From: Deltaproteobacteria bacterium | GTDB lineage: Bacteria > BMS3Abin14 | DNA length: 64,000 nt | Assembly (NCBI GenBank): GCA_013151915.1 | Contig: JAADHJ010000006.1 | Span: 65,404 to 129,403, forward strand | Reading direction: 5' to 3' | Shown here: positions 42,759 to 63,902 of the stretch, piece after piece | Position numbering within the stretch: position 1 is the stretch's first letter | How the letters are laid out: each line of letters starts with the position of its first letter | Made by a program: the position numbers and the translations under genes | The notes under the pieces: model-generated | Database searches by the model: none | The model's input: the letters and a program-made list of their open reading frames with translations, nothing else | What the model was told of the DNA's origin: nothing

Positions 42759-42924
42759 GGGTTCATCCTGGAAATGAGTACCTGGATGTGGACCGGATTG
42801 TGGAAAGAGCCAACTGACCGCAAAGTTAACGAATCCGCCCGGGATTGCCGCGTCGCTCTCGTCTCCCTCGATGCCCCTCGCAATGACAGCAAAATAATAA
42901 AGGTACGCATTAGCCGGACGAACC
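42759..42924. mobile_element. MITE-like element family A, copy 2 (internally deleted, 166 bp)
   Basis: Ends GGGTTCATCCTGGAAATGAGTACC ... GGTACGCATTAGCCGGACGAACC. It shares the internal CGCCCGGGATTGCCGCG and CTCGCAATGACAGCAAAATAATAAAGG with copy 1. Confidence 0.7.
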
Positions 42925-43071
42925 GATTTCACCAATATCCTATATCATGGGAAAAATCAATACATCGAATAGAAAAATACGATACATGTGGTGATTTCGC
43001 TGCACCAAAATGGGATCAGGACGTATCGGGGTTTTACCTGGAAATTGAGGAAAGAAAATCCGGATCGACTA

Positions 43072-44247
43072 TTATCTGCTGCAACCGTCTGAACAACAGT
43101 TGTCGGTCCCCGTCGGCGCTTTCCTGATGACACCCAGCCTATGAATCCATCTTTTTACCATCGTCGTCAGGGGGCGGATTGACAGTATCAGGAGGACAAC
43201 AGCTCCAGCAAATTGCAACCACCCTGGAATCACCTCCCCTGCCTGTCCTATCACCGCCTGCGGAGATATTCCTGCCAGACCGTAGATCTGATCCAGGAGC
43301 AGGCCCGCCAGAACGCTTACGGAAGCGATGACCGCCAGGTAGAGGACCGTAGCTCTTTTCCCGAGGAACCCGACAAGGACGGAAAGAGAGGCCAGGTTTG
43401 TTGCCGGACCGACCAGGAGAAAAACCAGTGCCGCGCCCGGGCTTACCCCCTTAAGCACCAGCGCCGCAGCGATGGGCGTCGAAGCGGTGGCGCAGATGTA
43501 AAGGGGGATACCTATCACGAGCATGATCAGCATGGACGACAGACCGCCGCCCAGATGTGATGAAAAAAGGTCCTCCGGAACAGCTGCGGTAATGATGCCT
43601 GCCAGCAGAAGTCCGATGAAGAACCAACCGGCAAGGTCACCCCAGAGTTCACTAAAGGAATAACGCATTCCTGTCCGAACCTTTTCGAAAAAAGAATGAT
43701 GATGACGGTGCTGCTCGGGGGGGCAGTTTTCGCCGTCGCAGCAGCCGTCCACCGGACATGCGGCATTGGCCTTTTCATCGGCAAGGGGATCTGGAGAGGC
43801 CATGAAGTTTTCGCTGATCCCCGCGATGAAAGCCGTAACGAATGCCACCAGGGGTCTGGCCACAGTCATGATGGGGTCAAGCAGAGCATAGCTGATGGCT
43901 ATGGAATCCACACCCGACTCAGGCGTTGAGATAAGAAAGGCCACCGTGGCGCCCCTGTTGGCTCCCTGTTTTCTCAGGGACGCCGCGGCCGGCAAAACAC
44001 CGCAGGAGCAAAGAGGGATGGGGATGCCGAAAAACGCAGCCTTGATAACGGGAAGAAACCGTCCCTTGCCCAGTTGTTTTGCCACGGTCTCGGGCGATAG
44101 AAACATCTTCAGCAATCCCGCGATGAGGATGCCGAACAGGACGTAAATGGCCGACGCCAGGAGGATATCCCAAGTCTCCGTGAGGACTGTCAAAAAACCG
44201 TGCAGTATGGCGAACATGAGATATCGTCTCCTTATCGAATACGGCAA
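43072..44247 (-). CDS. arsP: ArsP-family permease (DUF318) with Cys/His-rich cytoplasmic segments
   Basis: The conserved motif IPLCSCGVLP matches the ArsP TPFcSCS motif. There are 8+ TM segments, and a tail/loop with CPVDGCCDGENCPPEQHRHHH and GTDNCCSDGCSR. Confidence 0.7.
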   Translation of the reverse strand: MPYSIRRRYLMFAILHGFLTVLTETWDILLASAIYVLFGILIAGLLKMFLSPETVAKQLGKGRFLPVIKAAFFGIPIPLCSCGVLPAAASLRKQGANRGATVAFLISTPESGVDSIAISYALLDPIMTVARPLVAFVTAFIAGISENFMASPDPLADEKANAACPVDGCCDGENCPPEQHRHHHSFFEKVRTGMRYSFSELWGDLAGWFFIGLLLAGIITAAVPEDLFSSHLGGGLSSMLIMLVIGIPLYICATASTPIAAALVLKGVSPGAALVFLLVGPATNLASLSVLVGFLGKRATVLYLAVIASVSVLAGLLLDQIYGLAGISPQAVIGQAGEVIPGWLQFAGAVVLLILSIRPLTTMVKRWIHRLGVIRKAPTGTDNCCSDGCSR

Positions 44248-44256
44248 GCCCGGTGT

Positions 44257-44628
44257 TTATTCGCGAACGTGCTCCAGCGCCAGTTGGAGCATGTCCTCTA
44301 TATGTTCATCATTGAGACGGTAATATAGAATTGTGCCTTCTCTGCGGTTGGCCACCAGATTCAGTTGCCGCAAGAGCCGCAACTGGTGGCTGATGGCTGA
44401 TTCCGTGATCCCGAGGGTAGCCGCAATGTCGCACACACATATTTCTCCGGATTTGAGTGCACGCAGAATGTTAAGCCGTGTTGGATCCCCGAATGCTTTG
44501 AAGAATCGCGACAAATGCTCTACCTCGGCTGGATCCAGAGCTGACTTCCTCGCCCTCTCGATCCGGTCCTCATGGATAATCCGGCTGTCACAGCGATCTT
44601 CCCGATTGTTTATCATGGCGATCCTCAC
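44257..44628 (-). CDS. arsR: ArsR/SmtB family metalloregulator (CVC-type)
   Basis: HTH LSRFFKAFGDPTRLNILRAL and metal-binding ELCVCD-like GEICVCDIA. Confidence 0.85.
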   Translation of the reverse strand: MRIAMINNREDRCDSRIIHEDRIERARKSALDPAEVEHLSRFFKAFGDPTRLNILRALKSGEICVCDIAATLGITESAISHQLRLLRQLNLVANRREGTILYYRLNDEHIEDMLQLALEHVRE

Positions 44629-44817
44629 GGCATTTTGATATCTGTTTATATAATCATATAGTCAATAATAGGGGTTTGTCAATGCCCGCGAGGTCAACCT
44701 TTTCGCTATCTACAATTTCTATCTCTAATATTGATTCTGTCTATTTTCCATGCTATCTTCCATCCCAAGATTCTATCCGCCGATATTCCTGGTCGTCTAT
44801 TTGTAAGGAGGAACCCA

Positions 44818-45831
44818 ATGGGAAGGCTTTTTCCGCTTATCCTGGCCTTTTTCCTGGGCCTTATCCCGTCTGCCGCCCTGGCCGGGCCACAGTCCGGCAC
44901 CATCACCATGGAGTTTGACCTCACCTCCCACCAACCCGGGAAGGATGCCCAGCTCTGGATCCCCTATCCCGTGTCTGACGGGAACCAGCTGATTAAGAAA
45001 ATCAGGATAACGGGCGACTTCGCCGAATCGGCCGTATACACCGACCGTGAATACGGAACGCCCATGCTGTACGCTCGTTGGGACGGGAACGCGAAAAGCC
45101 GGAAGCTGACATTCTCCTTCACGGTGGAGCGCGAGGAAAGGCTTACAAGGGATCTGCCGGCCGGCGAGGCGCCGTGGGACCCGGCCAACTTCGCCCTGTA
45201 CCTAAAACCTACCCGGCTCGGCCCCACCGACGGCGAGATCAGGAAACTGGCTGACAGCATAACAGCGGGAAGGATGGGTGTGAGGGATCAGGCCAGGGCA
45301 ATATACGACTGGGTCAGCGAGAATATGTTCCGTGACCCGAATACCCGCGGGTGCGGGTCGGGCGACGTCGACTCCCTTCTGAACTCCCTGGGGGGCAAGT
45401 GCGCCGACATCTCTTCCGTATTCGTTGCCCTGACACGCGCGGCCGGGGTTCCCTCCCGCGAGGTGTTCGGAATACGCCTTGGAAAGGGCGGCACAACAGA
45501 CATCACCAAATGGCAGCACTGCTGGGCGGAGTACTACCTGCCGGGATACGGGTGGGTCGTCGTGGACCCTGCCGACGTCCTGAAGATGGTACTGAAGGAG
45601 AAGCTGGATGCCGGGGACGCGAAGACTGCCGAGTACCGGGAATACTTCTGGGGCGGGGTCGACCCTTACAGGGTGAAGCTCGGGGAGGGCCGGGACCTGA
45701 CACTCAACCCGCCGCAGAGCGGCGGGCCGGTGAATTATCTCATGTATCCCTACGCACAGATAGGGGGAAAAACCCTGGACTGGCTTGACCCGGATTCATT
45801 CAGATACAGGATTTCCTATACCGCCGGATAA
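44818..45831 (+). CDS. transglutaminase-like domain protein, secreted
   Basis: Signal peptide MGRLFPLILAFFLGLIPSAALA after AAGGAGGA. Transglutaminase core GKCADISSVFVALTRAAGVPSR with downstream H/D. Confidence 0.7.
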   Translation: MGRLFPLILAFFLGLIPSAALAGPQSGTITMEFDLTSHQPGKDAQLWIPYPVSDGNQLIKKIRITGDFAESAVYTDREYGTPMLYARWDGNAKSRKLTFSFTVEREERLTRDLPAGEAPWDPANFALYLKPTRLGPTDGEIRKLADSITAGRMGVRDQARAIYDWVSENMFRDPNTRGCGSGDVDSLLNSLGGKCADISSVFVALTRAAGVPSREVFGIRLGKGGTTDITKWQHCWAEYYLPGYGWVVVDPADVLKMVLKEKLDAGDAKTAEYREYFWGGVDPYRVKLGEGRDLTLNPPQSGGPVNYLMYPYAQIGGKTLDWLDPDSFRYRISYTAG

Positions 45832-45861: not shown

Positions 45862-46395
45862 TCAACCCAGTACTTTAAGATACTCCAGCAGATCGTTCAT
45901 GTCTTCATCCGATATGTTCCACCTGGGCATGGTCCGGTCCATGGACTCTCCCGAGGGCTCGATGCCATCGCGAATAGCCTTTTTGATCCCCTCATCGGTG
46001 TATGCGGCCTCTTCTCCGTCGTCTGCCTCACCGTGATGCTTGCCTGAAATAAGCGAGGAATACCGGATGTCGCCCGGGATGTGCGTCCCCATCATCACCG
46101 GCAGGCCGCCCTTGCCGTCCGGACCATGGCAGTTGACGCAGGACCCCCCCATCATGCGGAGCCAGTGGGGCCCTCCCCGGAACCGGATTCTCTGTCCCTC
46201 GCCGTCGATTCCGAGATAGTAGATGCGCTCCCCGGCAGACGAGTATGACCCCTTGTCATAGACCCCCCCGGCCCCCCATCCTGAGAAGGAAGCCATATGC
46301 CTGCTCCCGGCGCCGTACAGACAGACCCCGGCGATTCCCAGGATCATCAGGCCGAGGCCCCACCACAGGGTCCGGCGGGATCTTTTATCGCTCAT
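45862..46395 (-). CDS. membrane-anchored mono-heme c-type cytochrome
   Basis: An N-terminal TM helix with a single CVNCH haem-binding motif. The start overlaps the SHOCT gene stop by 4 nt (ATGA). Confidence 0.65.
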   Translation of the reverse strand: MSDKRSRRTLWWGLGLMILGIAGVCLYGAGSRHMASFSGWGAGGVYDKGSYSSAGERIYYLGIDGEGQRIRFRGGPHWLRMMGGSCVNCHGPDGKGGLPVMMGTHIPGDIRYSSLISGKHHGEADDGEEAAYTDEGIKKAIRDGIEPSGESMDRTMPRWNISDEDMNDLLEYLKVLG

Positions 46396-46664
46396 CCTTC
46401 CCCCTCCAGGGTGCGCTTCCTCTGCTCGAACTCCTCGGTGTCGATCTCGCCCTTCGCGTACCGCTCCCTGAGGATCTCCATGGGATTCCGATCACGGGCC
46501 ATGGATCCGCCACCCTGCCCGGCGGCGATGCCTCCGCGTCCCGCGGTGAAATAACGGAAGATAAGTACGGCCCCCACGATAATGACGGCCCAGAAAAAGA
46601 TCATCATGATCATACCTCCCGCCCCCCACATTCCGTAGCCATGATTGCCCCATCCTCCCATCAT
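46392..46664 (-). CDS. SHOCT-domain small membrane protein
   Basis: A TM helix, then ILRERYAKGEIDTEEFEQRKRTL (SHOCT motif). An ATG at 46664 follows AAGGGAGGA. Confidence 0.7.
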   Translation of the reverse strand: MMGGWGNHGYGMWGAGGMIMMIFFWAVIIVGAVLIFRYFTAGRGGIAAGQGGGSMARDRNPMEILRERYAKGEIDTEEFEQRKRTLEGEG

Positions 46665-46863: not shown

Positions 46864-48873
46864 TTACCGCATCTTGAGCGTCCGCGCATTGATCGCCACG
46901 ACAACAGTGCTCAGCGACATGAGAAGGGCCCCCATGGCCGGGCTGAGGACAATGCCCTTGCCGGCAAGCACTCCTGCCGCCAGCGGGATGGCGAAGATGT
47001 TGTAGCCCGTCGCCCAGGCCAGGTTCTGGACCATCTTGCGGTATGTGGCCCTCGCCAATTCGAAGATAGCCGCCACGTCGCGGGGATCACTGCGGACCAG
47101 GACGACGTCGGCCGTCTCCACAGCAACGTCGGTGCCCGCACCGATGGCAATTCCCAGATCGGCCGTTGCCAGGGCCGGCGCGTCGTTGACGCCGTCCCCG
47201 ATCATGGCGACTTTCTGTCCATCTTCCATGAGCTTCCTGATCGTGGCCGCCTTCTGGTCGGGAAGGACTTCCGCAAAATACTCATCAAGACCCAAGGTCT
47301 TGGAAACGGCGGCAGCCACCTTACTGTGGTCTCCCGTGAGCATCACGCACTTGATCCCCATGGCGTGAAGTCGCTCCACAGCTTCCACGGACGCGGGTCT
47401 TATAACGTCGCCCAGGGCAATGGCGCCCAGGATGGTGTCCCCCTCCAGCACGAAGACCACCGTCCGGCCTTCTGAATAGTGCTCAGCGAGGGGTTCTTCG
47501 TCAAAATGAAGGCCCCTTTCCCGCAGGTAGCCCGGGCTTGCCACCATGATCTTCCGCCCTTCCACCGTGGCCGTTGCTCCCTTCCCCTTGACTGCGTAAA
47601 AATCAACGGCCGGGGGGACTATGATCTCACGGGTGGAGGCCTCGGCGACAACTCCCTGAGCAATGGGGTGCTCTGACAGGCTTTCCACCGATGCCGCGAG
47701 ACGCAGGATCTCTTCCCCGGTTATGTTCTCGGATGGAATGATCCCCCGGACCCCGAAAAGACCTTCGGTGAGAGTCCCGGTTTTATCGAAAACAACGGCG
47801 TCGATGAGCCGGGACCTCTCGAAGGCGGCCCGGTCGCGCAGCAGCAGACCGCTGGACGCCGCGAGGGAAGTGGACACGGCCACAACAAGAGGGACGGCGA
47901 GACCGAGAGCGTGAGGACACGTTATGACCATGACGGTAACCATGCGCTCCATCGCGTATGCGAAGTCCTGGCCCAGGAGCAGCCACACGATCAGGGTCAG
48001 CGATCCAACACTCAGGGCAATGACGGTGAGCCAGAAGGCGGCACGGTTGGCCAGATCCTGGCTGCGCGACCTCGTCTCCTGGGCATTCCGGACCATCGTC
48101 ACCACCTGGGCGAGAAAGGTTTCCTCGCCCACTTTTTCCACAGCCACGGTGATGGAACCCTCGTTGTTGATGGCACCGCCCACCACTCCGTCGCCCGCCT
48201 TCTTTCCTACCGGCACCGATTCACCGGTAAGCATGGATTCGTTCACCGTGGTACTTCCCTCCACCACAGTGCCATCCGTGGGGACTTTCTCACCAGGCTT
48301 GACCACGAATCGGTCCCCCTTGACCAGGGTGTCGACCGGGACGTCACTGACGGATCCGTCATCCGCGACGAGGTGGGCTTCGGAGGGCAGGAGCCGCACC
48401 AGCTCCTCCAGGGCGCGGGACGCGCCCATGACGGACCGCATCTCGATCCAGTGACCGAGCAGCATGATGTCGATTAGGGTAACCAGTTCCCAGAAAAACA
48501 CCTTTCCGGGAAGGCCGAAAACCACCGCGGCGCTGTAGCCGTACGCCGCCGATATGGCCACGGCGATAAGGGTCATCATTCCCGGCCGGCGGGCGGCGAC
48601 TTCAGTGAACAGACCCTTAAGGAACGGCCACCCGCCGAAAAAATAAACCACTGAGGCAAGCACGAACAGGACCAGGGAATCGCCGGGGAAAACGATCCGT
48701 CCCTCGATCCCGAGGAACGACTGGACCATGGGAGACAGGGCGAGGACAGGGACCGTCAGGGCGAGGCAGATCTTGAAGCGCCCCTTGAAATCGGCCACCA
48801 TGTGCTCGTGGTGCGAACTGTGCCCCTTGTGTTCGCCCTGCGCTGAATGTGCCTGCATGTTATGTTTCTCCAT
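46864..48873 (-). CDS. copB: P1B-3-type heavy-metal ATPase (CopB-like), His-rich N-terminus
   Basis: His-rich N-terminus MEKHNMQAHSAQGEHKGHSSHHEH, TM6 CPH motif (ITCPHALGLA), DKTGTLT and GDGVNDAP. Confidence 0.85.
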   Translation of the reverse strand: MEKHNMQAHSAQGEHKGHSSHHEHMVADFKGRFKICLALTVPVLALSPMVQSFLGIEGRIVFPGDSLVLFVLASVVYFFGGWPFLKGLFTEVAARRPGMMTLIAVAISAAYGYSAAVVFGLPGKVFFWELVTLIDIMLLGHWIEMRSVMGASRALEELVRLLPSEAHLVADDGSVSDVPVDTLVKGDRFVVKPGEKVPTDGTVVEGSTTVNESMLTGESVPVGKKAGDGVVGGAINNEGSITVAVEKVGEETFLAQVVTMVRNAQETRSRSQDLANRAAFWLTVIALSVGSLTLIVWLLLGQDFAYAMERMVTVMVITCPHALGLAVPLVVAVSTSLAASSGLLLRDRAAFERSRLIDAVVFDKTGTLTEGLFGVRGIIPSENITGEEILRLAASVESLSEHPIAQGVVAEASTREIIVPPAVDFYAVKGKGATATVEGRKIMVASPGYLRERGLHFDEEPLAEHYSEGRTVVFVLEGDTILGAIALGDVIRPASVEAVERLHAMGIKCVMLTGDHSKVAAAVSKTLGLDEYFAEVLPDQKAATIRKLMEDGQKVAMIGDGVNDAPALATADLGIAIGAGTDVAVETADVVLVRSDPRDVAAIFELARATYRKMVQNLAWATGYNIFAIPLAAGVLAGKGIVLSPAMGALLMSLSTVVVAINARTLKMR

Positions 48874-48888
48874 ATCCTGATATCCCCC

Positions 48889-49956
48889 TCAATCCGCTGT
48901 CTTCCTGAGATTCAGAAGGTGCCGCCTTGCAGCCAAAGCTGCCTTCGCACCTTCTCCCGAAGCTATGATAATCCTCTTTCCGAAAGCGTCGGTAACGTCC
49001 CCGGCCGCAAAGAGCCCGGGACAGGACGTTGAGCAATCGGGGCCGATGGTGATCTCCCCGTTTTCGTTGAGTTCGACAATATCCGAAACCAGATGGGAGT
49101 TAGGCTGCAAGCCGATGGCAATGAATACGCCCCCGGCCGGCAGGTATAACGTCTCCTCCCCGGCTATCTTTCTGATCGTCAAACCGGACAATGCACTCTC
49201 GCCCTTAAAATCAACTACTTTGTATCCTTCGTACATGTTGAGGTTCTCGAATCTGCATATACGAGCCACAAGCGACGGATCAGCACTTAGTTTGCAGTCG
49301 GAGATGAGATTTATATTTTTGACGACGGTTCGCACTTTCTCAACGATCTGCACGGCCGAATTACCCCCCCCGATGATAGCGACATCTTCCCCTGTCACAA
49401 AGGAAAAATCCTGGATATTGCCGTAAAAGAGTCCTTTTCTCTGGAACTCCTCCTCACCGGGAACATCCAGTTTTCTCCTCGTCATACCGGTTGAAATGAT
49501 CAGGGTTTTTGCAAAATAGATCTTAAGCTCCGATGTAGTAACGTTGAAACCACCCTGGACGGTTTCGATCTTATCCGCTTCAGCGATCAGGTGGTCTATA
49601 TAGTGTGAGTGGAGCAACTGGCGCTGAAACTTTTCAGTCAGTTCAGGTCCCGTGATGAAGTCGAAACCCATGTAGTTCTCTACTTTCGTGCTGTCTATGG
49701 CCTGACCGCCGAGATCTTTAGCCAGCAGGAAGGCATCAATTTTAAGCGTGTCCGCATAGACAGCCGCCGTGAGCCCGGCGGGTCCGCCGCCGATAATAAT
49801 GAGATCGTAGGAAGTGCGGGGGAGTTCACATACCCTCTCCGCCAGGAATTTGTCCCTGCAGCCTTCGGAGCAGAAATAAAAGATCTTGTTGTCACATTCT
49901 GTTGTAAGAGCAGTTCTTTCGTCGATATCCATCTTGCATATGGGATCTTTTTTCAC
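48889..49956 (-). CDS. YHS/TRASH-domain fused to thioredoxin-reductase-like NAD(P)/FAD oxidoreductase
   Basis: The N-terminus has ICKMDIDERTALTTECDNKIFYFCSEGCRDKF, the same module as at the CopA N-terminus. This is followed by LIIIGGGPAGLTAAVY and the TrxR-like C-terminal GD motif FAAGDV. No CxxC redox pair is present. Starts at GTG. Confidence 0.65.
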   Translation of the reverse strand: MKKDPICKMDIDERTALTTECDNKIFYFCSEGCRDKFLAERVCELPRTSYDLIIIGGGPAGLTAAVYADTLKIDAFLLAKDLGGQAIDSTKVENYMGFDFITGPELTEKFQRQLLHSHYIDHLIAEADKIETVQGGFNVTTSELKIYFAKTLIISTGMTRRKLDVPGEEEFQRKGLFYGNIQDFSFVTGEDVAIIGGGNSAVQIVEKVRTVVKNINLISDCKLSADPSLVARICRFENLNMYEGYKVVDFKGESALSGLTIRKIAGEETLYLPAGGVFIAIGLQPNSHLVSDIVELNENGEITIGPDCSTSCPGLFAAGDVTDAFGKRIIIASGEGAKAALAARRHLLNLRKTAD

Positions 49957-51280: not shown

Positions 51281-51307
51281 GAAAGCTGGTGTATGGAAAC
51301 TGAAATC

Positions 51308-54903: not shown

Positions 54904-55749
54904 ATGGGAAAAACTTTGAAAACTGCAGCAGTACCCGGTGCAAAACTGGCTCATCTGCGGGAGATCCTCAGGAAGCTGGGATCAGTCGTCGTCGCCTATT
55001 CCGGAGGGGTCGACAGCACCTTTCTTATGTGGGTCGCCGCCGATGAGCTGGGGAACAGGGCCTTGGCGGTCACAGCCCGCTCGGAGACCTATCCGAAGCG
55101 TGAAGGCGAAGAAGCGGTGTCCATGGCCGAGGGGTTCGGGTTTCGCCACCGCGTCATGGAAACCTCAGAACTGGCGATCCCCAACTTCCGCCACAATCCT
55201 CCGGAGCGATGCTATTATTGCAAATCGGAGCTGTTTGCCACCATGCGCATGATCGCCGACGAGGAGGGCCTCAGACACGTGGCGGACGGGTCTACAGTAA
55301 GCGACATTGCCGACTACCGACCCGGCCGGAAGGCCGCAGAAGAGCAGAACGTGGTTTCACCCCTCATCCAGGCGAGACTGAACAAAGAAGAGGTTCGAAC
55401 CCTGTCGAAGGAACTCGGGATTCCCACCTGGAACAAACCCGCCTTCGCCTGCCTCGCCAGCCGCTTCCCCTACCATGAGGAGATAACAGAGGAGAAGCTG
55501 TCCCGGGTGGCCCTTGCGGAGGAGTACCTTCGATCTCTCGGTATCCGACAATACCGTGTCCGTCACCACGGAAACCTTGCACGCATCGAGGTCGAACCGG
55601 GGGACATCGAGGTCCTTCTGAAACAGGAGGACCTCGTTGGGCGCTTTCGTGAGCTCGGGTTTACTTACGTAACGGTAGACCTTGAGGGCTATCGACAGGG
55701 GAGCATGAACGACACGTTGACTGTTCAGTCAATGAACGAGAAGAGATGA
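54904..55749 (+). CDS. LarE-like PP-loop ATP pyrophosphatase (TIGR00268 family)
   Basis: VVAYSGGVDSTFL PP-loop and conserved C-terminal Cys (AFACLASRFPYHEE). The Met at 54904 is preferred; the ORF track begins 49 codons upstream. Confidence 0.7.
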   Translation: MGKTLKTAAVPGAKLAHLREILRKLGSVVVAYSGGVDSTFLMWVAADELGNRALAVTARSETYPKREGEEAVSMAEGFGFRHRVMETSELAIPNFRHNPPERCYYCKSELFATMRMIADEEGLRHVADGSTVSDIADYRPGRKAAEEQNVVSPLIQARLNKEEVRTLSKELGIPTWNKPAFACLASRFPYHEEITEEKLSRVALAEEYLRSLGIRQYRVRHHGNLARIEVEPGDIEVLLKQEDLVGRFRELGFTYVTVDLEGYRQGSMNDTLTVQSMNEKR

Positions 55750-55761: not shown

Positions 55762-57165
55762 TCACACTATCAGCCGATCCCACGTCCCATACTTTTCCTT
55801 AATGGTACCGCGAGGAATGCACAGCAAGATCAGCAGAACGCCGACGATTGTATTGTTCAATATTGTGCTGGTGCCGGCCCCTGCAAGCAGCCAGGGTGAA
55901 GCGATGACCCACGCACTGAATAAAACATTGATAAAACGGCCGGCCCTGATAATTTCAGCCATGGCTATCACTGCGACAGTTACAATGAGCGCGCCAAAAA
56001 TATTGTTGCTGACCGCTGCTCTACCCATCGTGCCAAGCACCACAGGCGAAAGCATGAGCCATAGGCCGAAGGCCGCGCTGAGAAGCAGCGTCCATGGCAT
56101 CGTGACTCCCCAGGACATTGCGGGAAAGTGCTCTTTAACGGGGGTCCCGTACAATGGCGTTCTTTCGTCCGTGTTCTCCAGGTTCAGCGTCCCCCCGATC
56201 CAGAATGTCCGCCACAGAGAATTTCCTTCACGCACGCTCTGCTTGAGAAACTGCCCCATCGCGACCAGCTCATCCACGGTGAACGGGATCATCAGGAGCA
56301 TGAGCAATGCGGTTATCAGACATAACGTGCACCAGTAACCCACAACAACCGGCTGCAGGATCACCAGCACGATGCTCGTGACGCCGAGCGGCACGACGAG
56401 GATGAAAAAGCCTGTCACCATCCACGGCATGGAACGCCAGCGCGTCTTGCCGCCCATCCAGGCCATGAGCATCTCCAGGGTATAGGCCACCGCGCCAAGT
56501 CCGGCATCGGAGATAGGAAATTTCCGCGACACGTCTGAAGTCAACACGTTCACAGTGCCCTGTCCAAAAAGCGGTTCCCAGATCGTGGGGATAAAACCCA
56601 ACTGGAATGCCGCGAGATAACGGGAAATCAACCAGCCGGCAAACGCGATGACGATCATCGGCGCACGCTGATGCCAGGTTGATGGATTGTAGCTCCAGCC
56701 TGGTGGAATTTCCGGGCCTGATTTGGCCATCTCCATATGATGCGCCATGCCGGGCATCGAGGGCACGAGGACTGAAAACGCAATGGCTAACGTGCCGATC
56801 AAGGTGTCGTTCGCAAACGCAGCCGGGCTTTTGGTCCAGAATACAAGGGGTGCGAACTGAAGCCATATCCCCACCAGGGCAACACTCCAGCGCCCCCAGG
56901 AATCAAATTGCGGGAACATCGCCAACAGGGCAAACAAGGCAAGCAACAGGCCACTGACCACATCGCTCCAGATCATTGCCGGTTTCACATAGCCGAAGGT
57001 AAACGGGCTGGTGATCAGCCAGAAACCAAGTCCCACGATAGTAAAGTTGGTCCATAACCACCGGCGGCGCATGTTCAGCGTCATATCCGTCATGTTTCCG
57101 TGGCTGTCCATGGAATCCATATTATGTTCACCGTGCTTCAAGGTGTGTTCGTGTTCCGATCTCAT
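55762..57165 (-). CDS. polytopic membrane protein (SPW-repeat-like / possible VKOR-like, CxxC in membrane)
   Basis: At least 10 predicted TM helices, repeated (S/T)SP(W/F) segments, and a membrane-embedded CTLC. Confidence 0.4.
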   Translation of the reverse strand: MRSEHEHTLKHGEHNMDSMDSHGNMTDMTLNMRRRWLWTNFTIVGLGFWLITSPFTFGYVKPAMIWSDVVSGLLLALFALLAMFPQFDSWGRWSVALVGIWLQFAPLVFWTKSPAAFANDTLIGTLAIAFSVLVPSMPGMAHHMEMAKSGPEIPPGWSYNPSTWHQRAPMIVIAFAGWLISRYLAAFQLGFIPTIWEPLFGQGTVNVLTSDVSRKFPISDAGLGAVAYTLEMLMAWMGGKTRWRSMPWMVTGFFILVVPLGVTSIVLVILQPVVVGYWCTLCLITALLMLLMIPFTVDELVAMGQFLKQSVREGNSLWRTFWIGGTLNLENTDERTPLYGTPVKEHFPAMSWGVTMPWTLLLSAAFGLWLMLSPVVLGTMGRAAVSNNIFGALIVTVAVIAMAEIIRAGRFINVLFSAWVIASPWLLAGAGTSTILNNTIVGVLLILLCIPRGTIKEKYGTWDRLIV

Positions 57166-58250
57166 AAACCATCGTTCCGTTCTTTGAGGCCCTCTGGAGG
57201 GTCGAGGTTGTTCTGCCGATACCAGCCTAACGGGTCCTGCTTCAATGCCGCCAGCATTTTCGGCAGGACCGCACGAAGCGAATGTTTCGGTTCCCAGTCA
57301 AGGAGGGTGCGCGCACGAGTGATGTCGAGGGCATAATGGTCGTTGGCCCGGTCGATCATCCACGGCTTGATGAACGGCTTCCGGCCGGGGATCTGGTTCT
57401 CCAGCCAGGCGCCTGCCTTCGCCAGCGGCGCCGGGACCTCGTGGGTCTCCCACGACCGGCCGTGAAGAATCCTGGCAATGGTATGCTGCAGCTCGTCGTA
57501 ACTTAGAGTTTCCGGCTCTCCGAGCAGCAGCGGTATTTCCGGCGGCAGTTGGGCGCGACGCTCCACGACGCGTTCAATGGCGTCCACCAGATCATCCTTG
57601 TGCATAAAGGCCTGACCATGCGCGATCTCGCCCGAGTACAGATGGCCGGAGAGCTGCTGCTCGTGGATACGCTGGATCTGGTGCGCCAATGGTATCGAGT
57701 TACAGAAATCATCGTAGACACCCGAGATACGAAGCAAAACGACAGGAATGTCGCCATGCTCCGCCAGGAGGAGTTGCTCAGTGCGAACCTTTGACTCCGG
57801 GTACGCCCAGGTCGGTTCAATCGGCCAGTCTTCTGTTATGAACAAACCCGGCTCCGCGGGTTTGTGTACCAGCATGGTGCTGGAAAAAACGAACTGCTCG
57901 ACCTTGAGGCCCACCTCCTTGAGCCCGCGCAGAAGGCGGCCGGTACCGCGAACGGTGATCTCATCATACAGGGGGCTCGGCTTACCCATGAAATCGTAGT
58001 ACGCCGCGAGATGAATCACTGATGCGACATGCTCCCCGTGGTGTTCACGGATGATGCGAAGACCTTCCAGCACATTGTCGTCTGATGTGATCTCGACCGG
58101 AACGTACACGCAATCGGGTGGCGGCGGAGCGAGAGCCTTGCGGTCGAAACCGATGACATGTTCGAATTTACCGGTAAACCGACGCATCACGGCATCGCCG
58201 ATTGATCCGTTGGAACCCGTGACAAGGATGATACCGCTGCCTGGCTTCAT
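57162..58250 (-). CDS. NAD-dependent epimerase/dehydratase family protein
   Basis: ILVTGSNGSIGDAV Rossmann motif and YxxxK-type SDR features. It overlaps the downstream membrane gene by 4 nt. Confidence 0.75.
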   Translation of the reverse strand: MKPGSGIILVTGSNGSIGDAVMRRFTGKFEHVIGFDRKALAPPPPDCVYVPVEITSDDNVLEGLRIIREHHGEHVASVIHLAAYYDFMGKPSPLYDEITVRGTGRLLRGLKEVGLKVEQFVFSSTMLVHKPAEPGLFITEDWPIEPTWAYPESKVRTEQLLLAEHGDIPVVLLRISGVYDDFCNSIPLAHQIQRIHEQQLSGHLYSGEIAHGQAFMHKDDLVDAIERVVERRAQLPPEIPLLLGEPETLSYDELQHTIARILHGRSWETHEVPAPLAKAGAWLENQIPGRKPFIKPWMIDRANDHYALDITRARTLLDWEPKHSLRAVLPKMLAALKQDPLGWYRQNNLDPPEGLKERNDGL

Positions 58251-58520
58251 TACAGTCCCTCCAAATCAGGCTTAACGTTTTGTCATGCCGACATGTTCAC
58301 CGGAATCCCGACGTATGCCTTGCCCCCACCATCAACGCGCAACGCGCCGGCGGATTGTGAGACGGACGACTCTTCGTTGGCACGAATTCCCTAATGTTGA
58401 TATCATACCATAGTTTATTATACCTTGGAGCATATACGCGGGGATCTGTAGTTTCTAAGGGGTCTTACGACAATATCAGTTTGGTACATTCAGGTTTTTC
58501 CGCCTTGATGGAGTCAGACA

Positions 58521-59252
58521 ATGGAAAAGTTCGCATGGCTTATCTGGTCGCTGAGTTTCCTTTCCTTTTGGGGCGTTGTATATTTTACGAGGCCTTCAAC
58601 GAGGAAGCAGATGCTGCGAATGAGTCTGTTCACAGCCCCCCTGGGGCTCACCGAGCCGCTGTTCGTGCCGGCATACTGGAACCCCCCGACCCTGTTCGGC
58701 CTGGCCCAGAGAACCGGGTTCGATATCGAGAGCCTTATTTTCTGCTTTTCGATAGGAGGTATCGCGACGGTCCTTTATGAGATGGTGGTGCCGACGCGGC
58801 ATGTCCCGATGCACAAGGACGAAAGACACAACCCTCACCACCGGTTCCATCTGCTCGCACTGATAAGCCCGGTCATCGTCTTCATTCTGCTAGCGCTGAC
58901 CACTTCCTGGAACGCCATCTACCCCGGCATCCTGGCCATGATCGTAGGAGCGATGGCGTCTCTGTGGTGCCGGCCGGACCTCAAGGGCAAGATCTGGGTG
59001 GGCGGAGGAATCTTCCTGGTTCTCTATTTTCTGTTTTTCCAGCTTCTGGATCTGGCGTTTCCGACCTACGTTGAAAGATACTGGACACTTGATGCCCTTT
59101 CGGGGATTATAGTGTTGGGAATCCCGATAGAAGAATACCTTTTTGCTTTCACCTTCGGCCTGATGTGGTCCAGTTTGTATGAACACCTCTCGTGGCAGAA
59201 AATAATACCCGCTCACCGGGGGACACATTCACCAAACAACAAAGACTCATGA
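58521..59252 (+). CDS. lycopene-cyclase-domain-like integral membrane protein
   Basis: 7 hydrophobic helices and two P-x-EE-like segments (GLTEPLF, GIPIEEYLFAF), reminiscent of CrtYcd-domain proteins. Confidence 0.4.
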   Translation: MEKFAWLIWSLSFLSFWGVVYFTRPSTRKQMLRMSLFTAPLGLTEPLFVPAYWNPPTLFGLAQRTGFDIESLIFCFSIGGIATVLYEMVVPTRHVPMHKDERHNPHHRFHLLALISPVIVFILLALTTSWNAIYPGILAMIVGAMASLWCRPDLKGKIWVGGGIFLVLYFLFFQLLDLAFPTYVERYWTLDALSGIIVLGIPIEEYLFAFTFGLMWSSLYEHLSWQKIIPAHRGTHSPNNKDS

Positions 59253-59280
59253 TTCATAAGCTCGAACGTATACCAAATAG

Positions 59281-59937
59281 ATGGGGGAACAGGATATGAG
59301 CCAGAACTACGCATATGGGAAATGGCCCCTGGTTGTGGGAATGATCATTGTAGCCCTTTTCTTTATAACCAGGTACATCCCTATAAAAACTAAATTCGAA
59401 AAACGCAGCGGCGGTGTGTTGTACACCTTTATCATCGCTCTTTTTGCCGAAATGTATGGTTTCCCGCTTACTATCTATATATTATCAACACAGTTCGGAC
59501 TCAAGATCCCTTTGACACACTCATATGGTCACCTGTCCGCTTATCTCCTCACCTTTTTGGGAATCAAGATAGCTTACGGCTGGGCATTAGTGATGATCGT
59601 GAGTAACGTTGTCATTGTTTTTGGCGTGATATGGATCACCAAAGGGTGGAGCCAGGTTTATCATTCGGATGGCAAACTCGTAACAACGGGAATCTATTCC
59701 AGAATGCGTCATCCCCAATACAGCGGGATCATCCTGGTTGCCATAGGTTTTTTAATCCAATGGCCGACACTAATTACCCTGTTCCTGTTCCCCTTTCTTA
59801 TAGTGATGTATTACAGGCTCGCCATGAGGGAAGAACACGATGTCGAGGAAGTATACGGACCGGAATATATCGACTATAAGAAAAATGTACCGGCCTTTAT
59901 TCCTCGTCTTAAGCTTGGTCTCTTGACAGCAAAATAA
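59281..59937 (+). CDS. isoprenylcysteine carboxyl methyltransferase (ICMT/PEMT) family membrane methyltransferase
   Basis: The C-terminal GIYSRMRHPQYSGIIL...EE...L matches the ICMT SAM-binding signature. Confidence 0.75.
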   Translation: MGEQDMSQNYAYGKWPLVVGMIIVALFFITRYIPIKTKFEKRSGGVLYTFIIALFAEMYGFPLTIYILSTQFGLKIPLTHSYGHLSAYLLTFLGIKIAYGWALVMIVSNVVIVFGVIWITKGWSQVYHSDGKLVTTGIYSRMRHPQYSGIILVAIGFLIQWPTLITLFLFPFLIVMYYRLAMREEHDVEEVYGPEYIDYKKNVPAFIPRLKLGLLTAK

Positions 59938-59980: not shown

Positions 59981-60060
59981 ATTCAGCGTTGATGACTTCG
60001 CAAAAAGTCCATCCATGGCTTTTTACTCCACGGAATAACGAAAAATGTCATTTTCACTTA
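59981..60060. repeat. REP/MITE-like element family B, copy 4 (truncated)
   Basis: GATGACTTCGCAAAAAGTCCATCCATGGCTTTTTACTCCACGGAATAACGAAAAATGTCATTTTCAC. It provides the last codons and the stop of the gene at 60054-60452. Confidence 0.7.
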
Positions 60061-60452
60061 CCGGACTCAGGGGAACTTTCCGCGTGCCACTGAGCCGCCG
60101 TGAATTTCCTGAGATCTTCAAAGTACCGTGAATTGGGATCAGCGCCCGCAGTGTGCCCTTTCATGACATCGAACCCGTGCCGGGAGAGCACCCAACCAAC
60201 CGCATGGATGGCCTCGTGGCGGGAAAGGCCGTCAGCCACCAGGCGCCGGAGCGTCCCAGCCACGGGAATCTCGTCGCCCATTGCCGTCTGGGTTTCCACC
60301 ATCGCATGGATCTGGGCATGAAGAAGAACATTCGGCAGGTTCGCCTCGCCGGCCTCGCAGTACTGAAGCACCGCGTTCACCCGCTCGGGCTCATCAGCTT
60401 TAAGCCACATCTCTGATTCAGGTTCGATCTCAGGATCGTAGTCGTGGATCAT
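60054..60452 (-). CDS. hypothetical protein (132 aa)
   Basis: An ATG at 60452 follows GGAGGAAAGGGGAG. No recognisable motif. Confidence 0.45.
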   Translation of the reverse strand: MIHDYDPEIEPESEMWLKADEPERVNAVLQYCEAGEANLPNVLLHAQIHAMVETQTAMGDEIPVAGTLRRLVADGLSRHEAIHAVGWVLSRHGFDVMKGHTAGADPNSRYFEDLRKFTAAQWHAESSPESGK

Positions 60453-60679
60453 TTCCACTCCCCTTTCCTCCTTGGTTCCTATTCGAATCGCCCCGGCAAA
60501 CTCAGCCCCCCCGGCTCTGCCGTGGGACCCAAGGAGTTTGACCATACCGGGCGTAGATGAAAGCCTCCCGTTTGTGAACCGCTCAAAGCTTTCAGGAGAG
60601 GAGACTTTCGTTTAACGATGTAAGAAGTTTAAGCCATACGGTATGGGACTGCAAGTATCATAATTGTTTGGGTTCATCC

Positions 60680-60881
60680 GGTTAATGCGTACCTTTATTA
60701 TTTTGCTGTCATTGCGAGGAGCATCGAGTAAGACGAGAGTGACGCGGCAATCTCATGCGGAGCTGAAAAGATCGTCACGGTGCCCTTCGGTCGCCCACGG
60801 GATCGCTTCGCATAGTTTCAGCTCGCGATGACGAATGGTGGGATATGGTCTTCATCCGGGTACGCATTTCCAGGATGACCC
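60680..60881. mobile_element. MITE-like element family A, copy 3 (inverted orientation, 202 bp)
   Basis: Ends GGGTTCATCCGGTTAATGCGTACC ... GGTACGCATTTCCAGGATGACCC. Flanks ATTGTTT / TATTCTTT. Confidence 0.7.
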
Positions 60882-61019
60882 TATTCTTTCACCACCTTTT
60901 GAACTTGACCTTCCCGACCCGGTTCCCCTAAAATACCCTTAGCTACTTATTGACGAAGGGAAACCGGCGGTTTATCTACACTCAGATTTGCCGAAAAACG
61001 ATAGTAAGGAGGTAGAGAA

Positions 61020-62321
61020 ATGGCAGGCAATAATGAAAAAGTCGTCGTTTCAACTTACACAAACGGCATTCTGGACCCCGACGAGCCGATGCTAGGTCCG
61101 GTAAAGGATGGTGGTACCATTGAGGCAAACACAATGCCTGGTTGTTGGGGGCCGATGATAACCCCTCACCTCAGGGGTGGTCATGAGGTAACTCGGCCGG
61201 TTTATGTGGAAAATGCAGAACCGGGGGATGCTCTCGCCATCAGAATCCGGGAGATAAAAGTCACATCCGCCGCCACAGCCTCCGGGCAGGATCGTATGGT
61301 TGATGGACATTTCCTTGGTGATCCATATGTGGCTAAGAAATGTCCCGGGTGCGATACCATGCATCCTGAGACAACGATAGAGGGAATCGGCCAAAATGCA
61401 GTACGCTGTTCCAATTGCGGCACCGTAATAACGGCCTTTCAGTTCGAGAATGGCTATACTGTCGTTTTCAACGAGGAGAGATCTCTCGGGGTGACCGTGG
61501 ATAAAGAAACAGCGGAGCGAATTGCCCGCAATGCCAGGAATTACGCCCAGCTTTCGGGAAATTGCACGCAGCACTCAGCCCTGCTCTTTGCTCCTCACGA
61601 CCTCAGCGGAGTCATATCCCGGATGAGACCCTTCATGGGTCAGCTCGGAACAACCCCTGCCGTGAAAATGCCGGATTCTCACAATGCCGGCGATTTCGGG
61701 GTGTTTCTTATTGGTGCGCCCCATGATTATGCAATTACCGATGAGCAACTCGAACTGCGCACCGACGGACACATGGATATCGACGCGGTCCGGCCCGGAG
61801 CGATACTGGTGGCTCCTGTGAAGGTGCCTGGCGCAGGCGTATATATGGGCGACATGCACGCGCTCCAGGGAGACGGAGAAATTGCCGGACACACTATGGA
61901 TGTGTCCGGGGTCGTGACGGTGCAGGTCGAGGTGGTGAAGGGACGGGAGCTTCGGGGACCGGTACTTTTTCCCCTTGTCGAAGATCTCCCTTACCTGGCT
62001 ATGCCTTTTAACTCCGAGGAAGGAGCAAAAGCCGAAATACTGGCAAAACAATGGGACCTTCCAAGACTGGAGAAATCCGCTCCTATCTCTGTCGTTGGAA
62101 CGGGAGCTGATTTAAATAAGGCTACGGAAAACGGGTTGCAGCGAGCTGCCGATATCTTAGGGATGAGCGTTCCGGAAGTGAAGAACCGCGCCACAATTAC
62201 CGGAGCTATTGAAATCGGCCGTCTACCGGGAGTTGTTCAGGTTACCTTCCTGGCGCCACTGGAGAATTTGAAAAGCGCCGGTCTCCTTCCCTTTGTAAGT
62301 GAGCAATATGGAATTGGTTAG
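61020..62321 (+). CDS. acetamidase/formamidase (FmdA_AmdA) family protein
   Basis: TRPVYVENAEPGDALAIRI and DGHMD..., 433 aa. RBS AAGGAGG. Confidence 0.7.
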   Translation: MAGNNEKVVVSTYTNGILDPDEPMLGPVKDGGTIEANTMPGCWGPMITPHLRGGHEVTRPVYVENAEPGDALAIRIREIKVTSAATASGQDRMVDGHFLGDPYVAKKCPGCDTMHPETTIEGIGQNAVRCSNCGTVITAFQFENGYTVVFNEERSLGVTVDKETAERIARNARNYAQLSGNCTQHSALLFAPHDLSGVISRMRPFMGQLGTTPAVKMPDSHNAGDFGVFLIGAPHDYAITDEQLELRTDGHMDIDAVRPGAILVAPVKVPGAGVYMGDMHALQGDGEIAGHTMDVSGVVTVQVEVVKGRELRGPVLFPLVEDLPYLAMPFNSEEGAKAEILAKQWDLPRLEKSAPISVVGTGADLNKATENGLQRAADILGMSVPEVKNRATITGAIEIGRLPGVVQVTFLAPLENLKSAGLLPFVSEQYGIG

Positions 62322-62359
62322 GGGAGAAGAGCCGGAGGGGCACTAAACTCCTTATCTCA

Positions 62360-62494
62360 CCACCCGTTCGTCACGCCTGCGGCAAGCTGTTCCTTAACCA
62401 AAGATTTCAGGTGTCCTCCGTATCCTTCCATAACGTGCCTTGTAGCGGTGAGCCGCTCCTTAACTCAATAAGGTACGCATTAACCGGAGGAACC
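62360..62494. mobile_element. MITE family A partial copy / solo terminal repeat
   Basis: GGTACGCATTAACCGGAGGAACC at 62472-62494 with upstream CCCGTTCGTCACGCCTGCGG. No matching left TIR. Confidence 0.5.
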
Positions 62495-62498
62495 AATT

Positions 62499-63902
62499 TT
62501 ATACGCAGCACGAGATACCCGAGATGTCCCGGGTGAACGAGACGGCTGCGAGTTTTATAGATTCGGCCATGCTCGGGAACACGGGCATGGACTCGATGAC
62601 GTCGTCGATGGTGTTTTTGTTCCTGATCAGCGTCATGGCCACGGAAGCCAACTCCGAAGACTGATTCGACAGGAAGTGTACGCCGCGGATTCGCCTCGTC
62701 TTCGGGTTTATCACCATCCTGATCAACCCCTCGGTGCGTCCCGTGATGATGGCCTTGGGGATTTTTTCGAAAGAAACGGTCCTGCAGGAGCAGATGCCTT
62801 CACGTTCCATCAGCTCTTCCTCCGTGAGGCCGACGCCTGAAAGCTGCGGGTCGGTGAATACCGTGTATGGGACAGTGTCATAGTCTATGCCGTGTTCCGT
62901 CCCGCTCAGGGCGTTTTGGGCGCCCAGCGTCCCCTCGCGGCCGGCGGTGGTCTCGAGGCGCCGCGGCAGATCCACGACGTCACCGGCGGCGAAGATATGG
63001 GGCTGCGAAGTCTGCATGAACCCGTTGACGGTAATAGCCCCCTTTCCATTGGTCTTTACACCGGCAATGTCGAGGGCAAGGCCGTTTGTGTTCGGATCCT
63101 TTCCAGCCGCCAGCAGGATCTCGTCACCGCTCACGACCACTTCCTTGCCGCCTGAAAGATAGGAAAGGTGTTTCCTGCCGTTTTTCACCCACGCCTTCCG
63201 GTATTCGACACCCAGGGTGATGGAGATCCCTTCGCCTTCGAGGAGTTCACGGAGCCTGACCGCCAGCTCCGGCTCCGTTCCCCTGTATATCGACCTTGAA
63301 CGCCTGAGCAGGGTCACCCGGGTTCCGAACCTGGAGTACATCTGGGAAAACTCCAGGCCCACCGCCCCGGCGCCGATCACGATCATGTCCTTTGGTAGGC
63401 GCCTTAACTTCAGGGCCTCGATATGGGTCAGGAAGCCTGTGTCTTCAATCCCCTCGATGTCAGGAACCCTGGCTGTGGACCCGGTGGCGACGAGGAACTT
63501 CTCCCCCTCGACAATATTTCCGTTGACCTCAACCTGATTGGGCGAGACGAATTTCCCCTTTCCATCAAGAAACGTGATGTTCTCAAGCCCTTTGAGTACA
63601 TGCTCGTACTTTTCACCGCGCATTTCTTCCACCATATCCAGTTCGGCCCGGACCACGGTGGGGAAATCGAACGTATCTCTGGACAGCCCTATCCCGGGGA
63701 CGCCATGATGATCCACTGCATGGAGGACCTCTCCGGCATACAGCAGCGCCTTGGAGGGGACGCAACCGACGTTCACACAGGTCCCTCCCAGGGGTAGTCC
63801 CGTGTTGATCATGGCCGTCCCGGCACCAAGATCATTGGCCTTTATGGCAGCCCCGAAGCCGCCGGCCCCGCCGCCGATAATGACCAGATCATACTTGTCC
63901 AT
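62499..63902 (-). CDS. merA: mercuric-reductase-like class I pyridine nucleotide-disulfide oxidoreductase (no N-terminal HMA domain)
   Basis: FAD motif VIIGGGAGG, redox-active GGTCVNVGCVPSK, and a C-terminal IKLAAVSFTRDISGISCCV carrying the MerA-type vicinal Cys pair. Confidence 0.6.
   Translation of the reverse strand: MDKYDLVIIGGGAGGFGAAIKANDLGAGTAMINTGLPLGGTCVNVGCVPSKALLYAGEVLHAVDHHGVPGIGLSRDTFDFPTVVRAELDMVEEMRGEKYEHVLKGLENITFLDGKGKFVSPNQVEVNGNIVEGEKFLVATGSTARVPDIEGIEDTGFLTHIEALKLRRLPKDMIVIGAGAVGLEFSQMYSRFGTRVTLLRRSRSIYRGTEPELAVRLRELLEGEGISITLGVEYRKAWVKNGRKHLSYLSGGKEVVVSGDEILLAAGKDPNTNGLALDIAGVKTNGKGAITVNGFMQTSQPHIFAAGDVVDLPRRLETTAGREGTLGAQNALSGTEHGIDYDTVPYTVFTDPQLSGVGLTEEELMEREGICSCRTVSFEKIPKAIITGRTEGLIRMVINPKTRRIRGVHFLSNQSSELASVAMTLIRNKNTIDDVIESMPVFPSMAESIKLAAVSFTRDISGISCCV

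Follow-up and report, generated by a model that had tools for sequence, protein, structure and literature searches.

The window analysed here is a 64-kb stretch (64,000 nucleotides, ~54% GC) of contig JAADHJ010000006.1 (positions 65,404 to 129,403) from a metagenome-assembled genome (MAG) named 'Deltaproteobacteria bacterium' (assembly GCA_013151915.1); proteins encoded in it are identical to NCBI entries NOY85958 to NOY85963. Its right-hand part is probably a remodelled chromosomal soft-metal detoxification cluster, reaching from ~39.0 kb to beyond 64 kb, and not an integrase-borne island. Over that span the assignment to a chromosomal accessory cluster for copper, mercury and zinc detoxification largely holds. 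Four components would act in it: an ArsR/SmtB-repressed SO_0444-type Cu/Zn exporter; copper efflux by CopB and CopA with redox partners (a YHS flavoprotein, an FAD enzyme, a cytochrome c and a small membrane protein); a set of proteins maintaining thiols and lipids of the envelope (LarE, SPW-VKOR, an epimerase, a lycopene-cyclase-domain protein, an ICMT-like methyltransferase and cyclopropane-fatty-acyl-phospholipid (CFA) synthase); and a merR-merT-merA mercury module. An old supercluster in common with the BMS3Abin14 lineage would have been altered by translocation of an arsR-exporter-cfa unit, insertion of a double-cubane-reductase pair into that unit, addition of the mer module, and loss of csoR, of DUF302 and RseC genes and of an ACR3-like module. 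Exchange or gene conversion between lineages is likely but unproven.

Boundaries of the cluster

The window from 1 to ~38.9 kb holds a housekeeping block (der, ruvABC, yebC, rpsA, ispH, cmk, aroA, tyrA, a DAHP synthase gene, pheA, accA, dnaE, guaA, guaB and livFGMHK). Core order from rpsA to livK was kept in two loci, L168 and L169 (CP070719.1; DnaE 74% identical). In CP070719.1 the order rpsA ... dnaE-guaA-guaB-livFGMHK was found at 63-86% identity, a glycosyltransferase gene and not cfa adjoins livK, and the cluster is absent from beside livK. Core synteny stops at livK (38936), and the break was therefore placed at 38.94-39.25 kb. A preliminary description of the window had started the region at a repeat resembling a miniature inverted-repeat transposable element (MITE copy 2); that start is not upheld, and the switch in gene content reported there is real but lies further left, after livK. 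Independent support for a left edge to the left of MITE copy 2 comes from BMS3Abin14, in which cfa is contiguous with arsR and the exporter gene. MITE copy 2 would then be the marker of an internal junction and not an edge. For the site beside livK itself, the comparison was with CP070719.1.

On the right, a conspecific strain (ENA SONG20-1 scaffold_1629; loci L082 and L163) was collinear with the window over 44.7-64.0 kb at 94-98.6% nucleotide identity. Upstream of merA it carries a family B repeat (described below), merT, merR (merT and merR directly upstream of merA, at 97% nucleotide identity) and a DsbD_TM gene, after which the contig ends. The region therefore runs past the window, and the end at 63902 given in the preliminary description was too early.

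Pfam domains of integrases, recombinases or transposases were found in no open reading frame (ORF) between 39 and 64 kb, and no tRNA gene was found in the 64-kb window with ARAGORN. No flanking direct repeats bracket the block; only dispersed copies of two small repeat families (A and B) are shared. An integrase or tRNA gene had been expected just beyond the window, but no integrase was present in the 2.4 kb past its end in the conspecific strain, and no integrase, transposase or tRNA gene was found within 10 kb beyond the formamidase gene in the BMS3Abin14 cluster.

The host was placed by DnaE against a set of 5.8 billion proteins. Relatives were few (78%, the best outside the species, then 74% and ~70% identity), and matches named as typical Deltaproteobacteria (including Syntrophobacterales) or Nitrospirota reached ~55%; the organism, an uncultured sediment bacterium, therefore comes from a poorly sampled lineage.

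Relation to the BMS3Abin14 lineage

Contigs of the BMS3Abin14 lineage (L164, L170 and near-identical ones) carry 13 cluster genes at 77-89% amino-acid identity (mean 84.5%) in nearly the same order. The shared order is CopB, YHS flavoprotein, FAD enzyme, 81-aa protein, CopA, LarE, SPW-VKOR, epimerase, lycopene-cyclase-domain protein and ICMT-like methyltransferase. About 15 kb (CopB to the ICMT-like gene), together with arsR-exporter-cfa and the formamidase gene, is common to both lineages. Against this background several modules were found rearranged. In BMS3Abin14, arsR, the exporter gene and cfa form one contiguous unit located between the ICMT-like gene and the formamidase gene, with cfa (77% identical to that of the window) directly after the exporter gene. 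In the window, MITE copy 2 and a two-gene cassette separate cfa from the other two genes, and the interval between the ICMT-like and formamidase genes holds a family B copy, an ORF (60054-60545) and MITE copy 3. This ORF, for which no Pfam or NCBIfam match was found, is kept at 96% in the conspecific strain and is not in BMS3Abin14; it occupies the place of arsR-exporter-cfa, arsR2-SBF and a methyltransferase gene in BMS3Abin14, where the second arsR, the SBF/ACR3-like gene and the methyltransferase gene are extra relative to the window. Upstream of copA, BMS3Abin14 has csoR and a small Cys-rich peptide where the window has a csoR remnant only. DUF302 and RseC genes lie there between larE and the VKOR gene, against a gap of 12 bp in the window. 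The sequence 3' of the formamidase gene consists of Mla transporter and metabolic genes in BMS3Abin14 and of a MITE remnant and the mer module in the window.

Differences were also found between the conspecific strains. SONG20-1 has two inserted family B copies at the position that corresponds to 51.2 kb, and a further one lies upstream of its transglutaminase gene. Of MITE copy 3, 186 bp are absent, and the remnants at the copy 4 site differ. Large internal deletions affect the lycopene-cyclase-domain and ICMT-like genes (L163 6368-6586 and 5445-6366 versus window 58316-59060 and 59280-59783), which appear dispensable and decaying in that strain. The direction of each rearrangement can be read only conditionally, and the order of events outlined at the start is meant in that sense. 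An earlier proposal of a mosaic assembled by successive insertions, with a comparison of synteny suggested as its check, holds as far as the region is accessory and metal-oriented, its modules stand in different combinations and orders in relatives, and strains differ by insertions and deletions; it does not hold for the ~15 kb, which form an old supercluster conserved in BMS3Abin14.

The two-gene cassette between cfa and MITE copy 2 encodes a double-cubane-cluster reductase and its activase. The pair was 74-90% identical across 80 diverse genomes (Desulfobacterales, Geobacteraceae, Deferribacteres/KSB1 and Vecturithrix among others), and in 74 of the 80 it stands as an isolated pair with non-conserved flanks. 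It is not in the BMS3Abin14 cluster. Proteins of Desulfatiglandaceae and Syntrophaceae MAGs match the reductase at 90% identity, and the reductase gene has a GC content of 0.50 (called the lowest of the genes scored; the ICMT-like gene is listed at 0.44) and atypical codon usage (z = -3.8). These properties together make it likely that the cassette was inserted into the arsR-exporter-cfa unit. The label 'HGD-D', at one point considered for the reductase, was dropped; NF040772 denotes a double-cubane-cluster reductase.

Cluster proteins are more similar to their BMS3Abin14 counterparts than core proteins are to their best non-conspecific orthologs (mean 84.5% versus 75.5% for 10 core proteins; Mann-Whitney p = 0.002). 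Codon usage was compared by a likelihood test in which length and amino-acid content are controlled for. A z below -3.5 was obtained for 6 of 21 cluster genes and 1 of 32 core genes (Fisher p = 0.012), and the spread was wider in the cluster (Levene p = 0.0003). The outliers were the genes for the formamidase (-6.5), the ICMT-like protein (-4.7), VKOR (-4.5) and the reductase (-3.8), as well as arsR and the YHS flavoprotein gene. Dinucleotide and tetranucleotide deviation was higher on the right, but from ~34 kb on, and is confounded by membrane-protein genes. Homologs of SPW-VKOR at 60-66% identity occur in several phyla, many with an N-terminal heavy-metal-binding domain (PF19335), and the VKOR-epimerase pair is linked to heavy-metal ATPases in BMS3Abin14 and lies next to one on a mobilizable plasmid of another phylum (Pontibacter). 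Taken together, the patchy codon usage, the cluster identity above that of the core, the plasmid-borne VKOR-epimerase pair and the multi-phylum distribution of SPW-VKOR favour a cluster of old origin in which modules were gained and lost one by one and some exchange took place among related lineages; transfer is unproven.

Gene content and junction repeats

Families were called with Pfam and NCBIfam profiles at curated cut-offs (Table 1). The gene list of the preliminary description was mostly borne out, with ArsR, the transglutaminase-like protein, the cytochrome c/SHOCT pair, CopB, CopA, LarE, the formamidase and MerA above cut-offs. It had placed MerA before LarE, where MerA is in fact the last gene, and it lacked the YHS flavoprotein, the FAD protein, the 81-aa protein, SPW-VKOR, the epimerase, the lycopene-cyclase-domain protein, the ICMT/PEMT-like methyltransferase and ORF 60054-60545. 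A MerA-like identity for 55762-57165 was discarded, as its Pfam domains are those of SPW-VKOR, and a 126-aa ORF at 51189-51569 was dropped as spurious (GC3, the GC content at third codon positions, 0.44) in favour of the 81-aa ORF in another frame.

The gene listed earlier as arsP encodes a Cu/Zn exporter. ArsP_1 is a broad Pfam family and the specific equivalog is the SO_0444 exporter, so the identity as an arsenical permease was abandoned; the identical protein NOY85961.1 carries the NCBI name SO_0444 family Cu/Zn efflux transporter. None of the arsenic genes arsB/acr3, arsC and arsM was found in the window. Cu/Zn export by the SO_0444 family is supported by mutant fitness and complementation in Shewanella (PMC3219624). 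As in the SO_0443/SO_0444 locus of Shewanella oneidensis (PMC3219624), the NF033936 transporter lies in an operon with a metal-responsive regulator; unlike in that locus, the regulator is of the ArsR/SmtB type with a CVC motif and not of the MerR/ZntR type, and CFA synthase belongs to the same unit in the relative BMS3Abin14.

The unit has the arrangement of an ArsR/SmtB efflux operon, with the repressor gene beside the transporter gene and a putative operator dyad overlapping the promoter. At 44647-44660, the dyad TATATAATCATATA shares positions with the -10 hexamer of the near-consensus arsR promoter, and it occurs once in the window versus 0.01 expected. A motif, TATATGAnnAnATA, occupies the equivalent position in front of arsR orthologs or paralogs of BMS3Abin14 (L170; ArsR 80% identity) and of the more distant relative L083 (63%). 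This conservation in three lineages supports TATATAATCATATA/TATATGAnnAnATA as a candidate ArsR operator, in line with the operator dyads proposed earlier for the divergent region upstream of arsR. The motif presumably resembles AT-rich SmtB/CzrA-type operator dyads, which we take as a lead only.

Both copper ATPases show the features of the P1B type, namely CPC (CopA) or CPH (CopB) in the sixth transmembrane helix and DKTGT, with TIGR01511 and TIGR01525 above cut-offs. As in known copper and mercury clusters (copA/copB/csoR and merR-merT-merA), CopA combines CPC with an HMA domain and CopB combines CPH with a His-rich N-terminus. MerA has a CxxxxC motif (GGTCVNVGC) and a C-terminal Cys-Cys (...SGISCCV*), and the conspecific strain has merT and merR ahead of merA. 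Accessory thiol oxidoreductases (DsbD-like, VKOR) are likewise found in plasmid metal clusters. The cluster differs from these systems in that csoR is a 25-aa remnant, MerA is without an NmerA domain, no merP or merB was seen here, and the ATPases are interleaved with the YHS thioredoxin reductase (TrxR)-like flavoprotein, the FAD enzyme, LarE, SPW-VKOR and lipid-modifying genes, whose metal roles are putative. Positions 54649-54755, covering part of the csoR remnant, are absent from the conspecific strain; csoR has decayed and was partly deleted there, so copA is without its usual regulator in this species. The peptide ending in GGGCCG, directly upstream of copA, may be a membrane-anchored metal-binding peptide. 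In both lineages the YHS flavoprotein, with a thioredoxin-reductase fold and an N-terminal YHS domain, was seen between the two copper ATPases.

The merA gene closes a merR-merT-merA module whose start lies outside the window. The best match in a scan of metagenome contigs was 88%; this MerA, in L083, again belongs to one merR-merT-merA module, with merT and merR directly upstream, in different surroundings.

An 80% homolog of the transglutaminase-like protein (L081 1608-5273) divergently adjoins an operon of an HMA P-type ATPase, DsbD and MerR, and the protein recurs beside heavy-metal ATPase/DsbD/MerR operons (observations on L081 and on proteins P0065, P0072, P0076, P0078 and P0085). In several homologs a rhodanese domain is fused to it, a hint of a periplasmic role connected with sulfur or metals.

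Two families of small repeats were found. The terminal inverted repeats of family A, GGTTCATCCTGGAAATGAGTACC and GGTACGCATTAACCGGATGAACC, are 23 nt long and imperfect, with 19 of the 23 positions matching. The three full copies of the family are 164-427 nt long and 79-90% identical, with different internal parts and ends that pair in folds; BLAST E-values among the copies were 1e-15 to 1e-28, so the matches are not due to chance. Like MITEs and repetitive extragenic palindromic (REP)-like repeats, family A is short, non-coding and intergenic, with terminal inverted repeats, several diverged copies, and presence in one strain and absence in another; in difference to MITEs, no target-site duplication, clean empty site or parent transposase was identified for it. 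Two of the three copies reported earlier within or at the start of the region (copies 2 and 3) are full, whereas 'copy 4' is a terminal remnant. In the conspecific strain the copy 4 site holds a longer family A remnant. At copy 3 that strain retains one inverted repeat, which indicates an internal deletion or remnant and not an empty site. A parent transposase was not found in the window, the scans of the sequence collection having served other questions; no family A copy was found outside this species among ~170 loci examined, and no repeat or spacer matched Rfam. Three of four copies lie in the accessory 39% of the window, which is not a significant enrichment (p ~0.17, simple binomial).

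Family B is dispersed, ~110 nt long, and contains the inverted motifs GCAAAAAGTC/GACTTTTTGC. It also occurs in L083 and in a Desulfatiglandaceae MAG (L002), and its copy number differs between conspecific strains. In the window, 5 of 9 junction spacers hold a family A or B copy, versus 0 of ~10 spacers that are conserved within the cluster. The small repeats are real and are located at rearrangement junctions; the MITE label is used without target-site duplications or a parent element to back it. A causal role of the repeats in the rearrangements is putative.

Heptamer tandem arrays were noted in core spacers: GAGTCCA x12 between guaA and guaB (32219-32305), the same unit and its complement around 2.2-2.4 kb (2160-2189 and 2354-2393), and CAACGTT, repeated ~9 times, in an intergenic spacer at 25.3 kb (25275-25335).

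Table 1. Positions of genes, regulatory sites and repeats in the 64-kb window, with family B copies in other loci.
Feature	Position	Strand	Remarks
Family A copy 1	5021-5447		Full copy
Left synteny break (livK/cfa spacer)	38937-39246	.	Glycosyltransferase beside livK in CP070719.1; family B fragment ~39179-39235
Cyclopropane-fatty-acyl-phospholipid synthase (cfa)	39247-40359	-	NF008686, 547 bits (cut-off 400)
Acyl-CoA-dehydratase-type activase (cassette)	40654-41406	-	TIGR00241 above cut-off
Double-cubane-cluster reductase (cassette)	41429-42706	-	NF040772 above cut-off
Family A copy 2	42760-42923	+	Full; junction reductase gene/exporter gene; terminal inverted repeats pair in fold
SO_0444-family Cu/Zn efflux transporter	43072-44217	-	Pfam ArsP_1; NF033936, 419 bits (cut-off 300)
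ArsR/SmtB metalloregulator	44257-44616	-	CVC motif; HTH_5; NF033788
arsR promoter	44647-44682	-	TTGACA (44682-44677), 18-nt spacer, TATGAT (44658-44653); promoter scan, 11/12 consensus matches
Transglutaminase-like protein, secreted	44818-45831	+	PF01841; identical to NOY85963.1
Cytochrome c	45862-46395	-	CVNCH motif; Pfam; kept in conspecific strain
SHOCT small membrane protein	46392-46664	-	Pfam; kept in conspecific strain
CopB-type P1B-3 ATPase	46864-48873	-	TIGR01511, 604 bits (cut-off 397); CPH, His-rich N-terminus, no HMA domain
YHS-domain TrxR-like flavoprotein	48889-49956	-	No CxxC motif; 88% identical to BMS3Abin14 gene
FAD-dependent oxidoreductase	49997-51118	-	83% identical to BMS3Abin14 gene, same order
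81-aa membrane protein	51308-51553	-	Kept between the two ATPases; gene calls in relatives
CopA-type P1B-1 ATPase	51590-54319	-	CPC motif; YHS and HMA domains
Small single-transmembrane peptide ending GGGCCG	54435-54656	-	Directly upstream of copA; BMS3Abin14 counterpart L164 15317-15505
Decayed csoR remnant	54635-54703	-	25 aa, 52% identity, E = 6e-4 (tblastn with BMS3Abin14 CsoR)
LarE-family ATP-dependent sulfur transferase	54757-55749	+	TIGR00268, 330 bits (cut-off 150)
SPW-VKOR fusion membrane protein	55762-57165	-	Pfam
NAD-dependent epimerase-family protein	57162-58250	-	Pfam
Lycopene-cyclase-domain membrane protein	58521-59252	+	Pfam; with next gene 88% identical to BMS3Abin14
ICMT/PEMT-like methyltransferase	59281-59937	+	Pfam; GC 0.44; codon z = -4.7
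ORF without family	60054-60545	-	Likely 132 aa starting 60452 (132-163 aa); between family B copy and MITE copy 3
Family A copy 3	60672-60881	-	Full, inverted; 60705-60890 (body and one inverted repeat) absent in conspecific strain
Formamidase/acetamidase-family protein	61020-62321	+	PF03069; 85% identical to BMS3Abin14 GBE15507.1; codon z = -6.5
Family A 'copy 4'	62472-62494	+	Terminal remnant only; formamidase/merA junction
MerA core enzyme	62499-63902	-	TIGR02053, 494 bits (cut-off 454); no NmerA domain
Family B, window	13483-13592, 20068-20176, 20210-20242, 39179-39235, 59998-60062		Last copy at a junction
Family B, conspecific strain	L082 1-47 and 6592-6834; L163 1809-1882
Family B, L083	11401-11478

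Alternative explanations and meaning

Several observations weigh against a remodelled cluster that has seen some exchange. Mean GC and GC3 are the same in cluster and core, as is the median codon-usage z, so that of the compositional difference anticipated in the preliminary description the patchiness of codon usage was found and a shift in the means was not. The BMS3Abin14 cluster (L164) and the core contig L168 are not linked to one organism; the argument from higher identity in the cluster than in the core therefore rests on the DnaE value of 78% as an upper bound, and differing selective constraints could also yield such a difference. The right boundary, and everything beyond 64 kb, is known only from the conspecific strain, which is 95-98% identical and whose contig stops behind the DsbD-like gene. 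No consistent target-site duplications were found in the flanks of family A copies 1-3, and no clean empty sites were found for the family. The match between repeats and junctions was counted post hoc, and long spacers are likelier both to hold repeats and to be junctions.

It is unlikely that the region is purely vertical, an ancestral neighbourhood in which all differences are lineage losses and local rearrangements, with no transfer and with the repeats as bystanders in dispensable spacers. The conserved order from CopB to the ICMT-like gene in two lineages, the host-like mean composition and the lack of mobility genes agree with such a history, as does the presence of families A and B in core spacers at 5.0, 13.5 and 20.1 kb. 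It is opposed by the mean identity of 84.5% to BMS3Abin14, as against 75.5% for best core matches and no more than 78% for DnaE, and by the strong codon outliers (formamidase, ICMT-like, VKOR and reductase genes). It is further opposed by the 90% identity of the reductase to Desulfatiglandaceae and Syntrophaceae MAG proteins, as against ~55% for DnaE to matches named Deltaproteobacteria or Syntrophobacterales, by the fact that unrelated surroundings, among them a plasmid, also harbour the mer module and the VKOR-epimerase pair, and by the absence of the cluster beside livK in CP070719.1.

A bolder version of the remodelled cluster is rather improbable. In it, the block from CopB to the ICMT-like gene, together with the linked CFA synthase gene in its vicinity, would be an uncharacterised copper-defence pathway in which Cu efflux is coupled both to cofactor or thiol chemistry dependent on sulfur transfer and to the remodelling of lipids and quinones in the envelope; separately, the two repeat families would serve as recombination substrates that shuffle modules.

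A classical genomic island would be a single block from 42.76 to ~64 kb that entered by site-specific integration, with MITE copy 2 as its left end and an integrase or tRNA gene just past the window. This is very unlikely. Gene content does shift from housekeeping to metal resistance, dinucleotide and tetranucleotide signatures do deviate more on the right side, and relatives of cluster genes occur on plasmids, with a DDE transposase beside one VKOR relative (L167). However, cfa, left of the MITE, belongs with arsR and the exporter gene in BMS3Abin14, core synteny stops at 38.9 kb and not at 42.76 kb, and the window has no integrase, transposase or tRNA gene. Past its end the conspecific strain has merT, merR and DsbD_TM but no integrase, Mla transporter and metabolic genes stand next to the BMS3Abin14 cluster, and mean GC and GC3 equal those of the core. 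The region has accessory cargo, patchy codon usage and variability between genomes in common with integrase/tRNA islands; it differs from them in that no integrase, tRNA gene or flanking direct repeats were found, its mean composition is host-like, and a large part of it is kept in a related lineage.

Least probable of all is an assembly artefact, in which some repeat junctions (especially at 39.2 and 42.8 kb) would be chimeric metagenome joins and the mosaic partly non-biological: the window does come from a MAG contig, and the contigs of the conspecific strain and L168 do break at repeats or at core-to-accessory transitions, but the independent assembly SONG20-1 scaffold_1629 has the same order over 44.7-64 kb, spanning the sites of the family B copy, of copy 3 and of copy 4 (the left joins lie outside that span), and the family A copies are only 79-90% identical with different internal parts, so that mis-joining is unlikely.

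With its boundaries corrected, the region is a chromosomal metal-resistance cluster of mosaic make-up and familiar kind, and the current understanding of metal resistance and mobile elements is unchanged by these results. The corrected boundaries and nature of the region matter for the annotation of this MAG, and a concrete, conserved candidate for an ArsR operator is supplied. Of most interest is that LarE, SPW-VKOR, the epimerase, lipid-modifying genes and the YHS flavoprotein are repeatedly found linked to copper ATPases in bacteria of sediments and vents; a role of this linkage in copper tolerance is putative.

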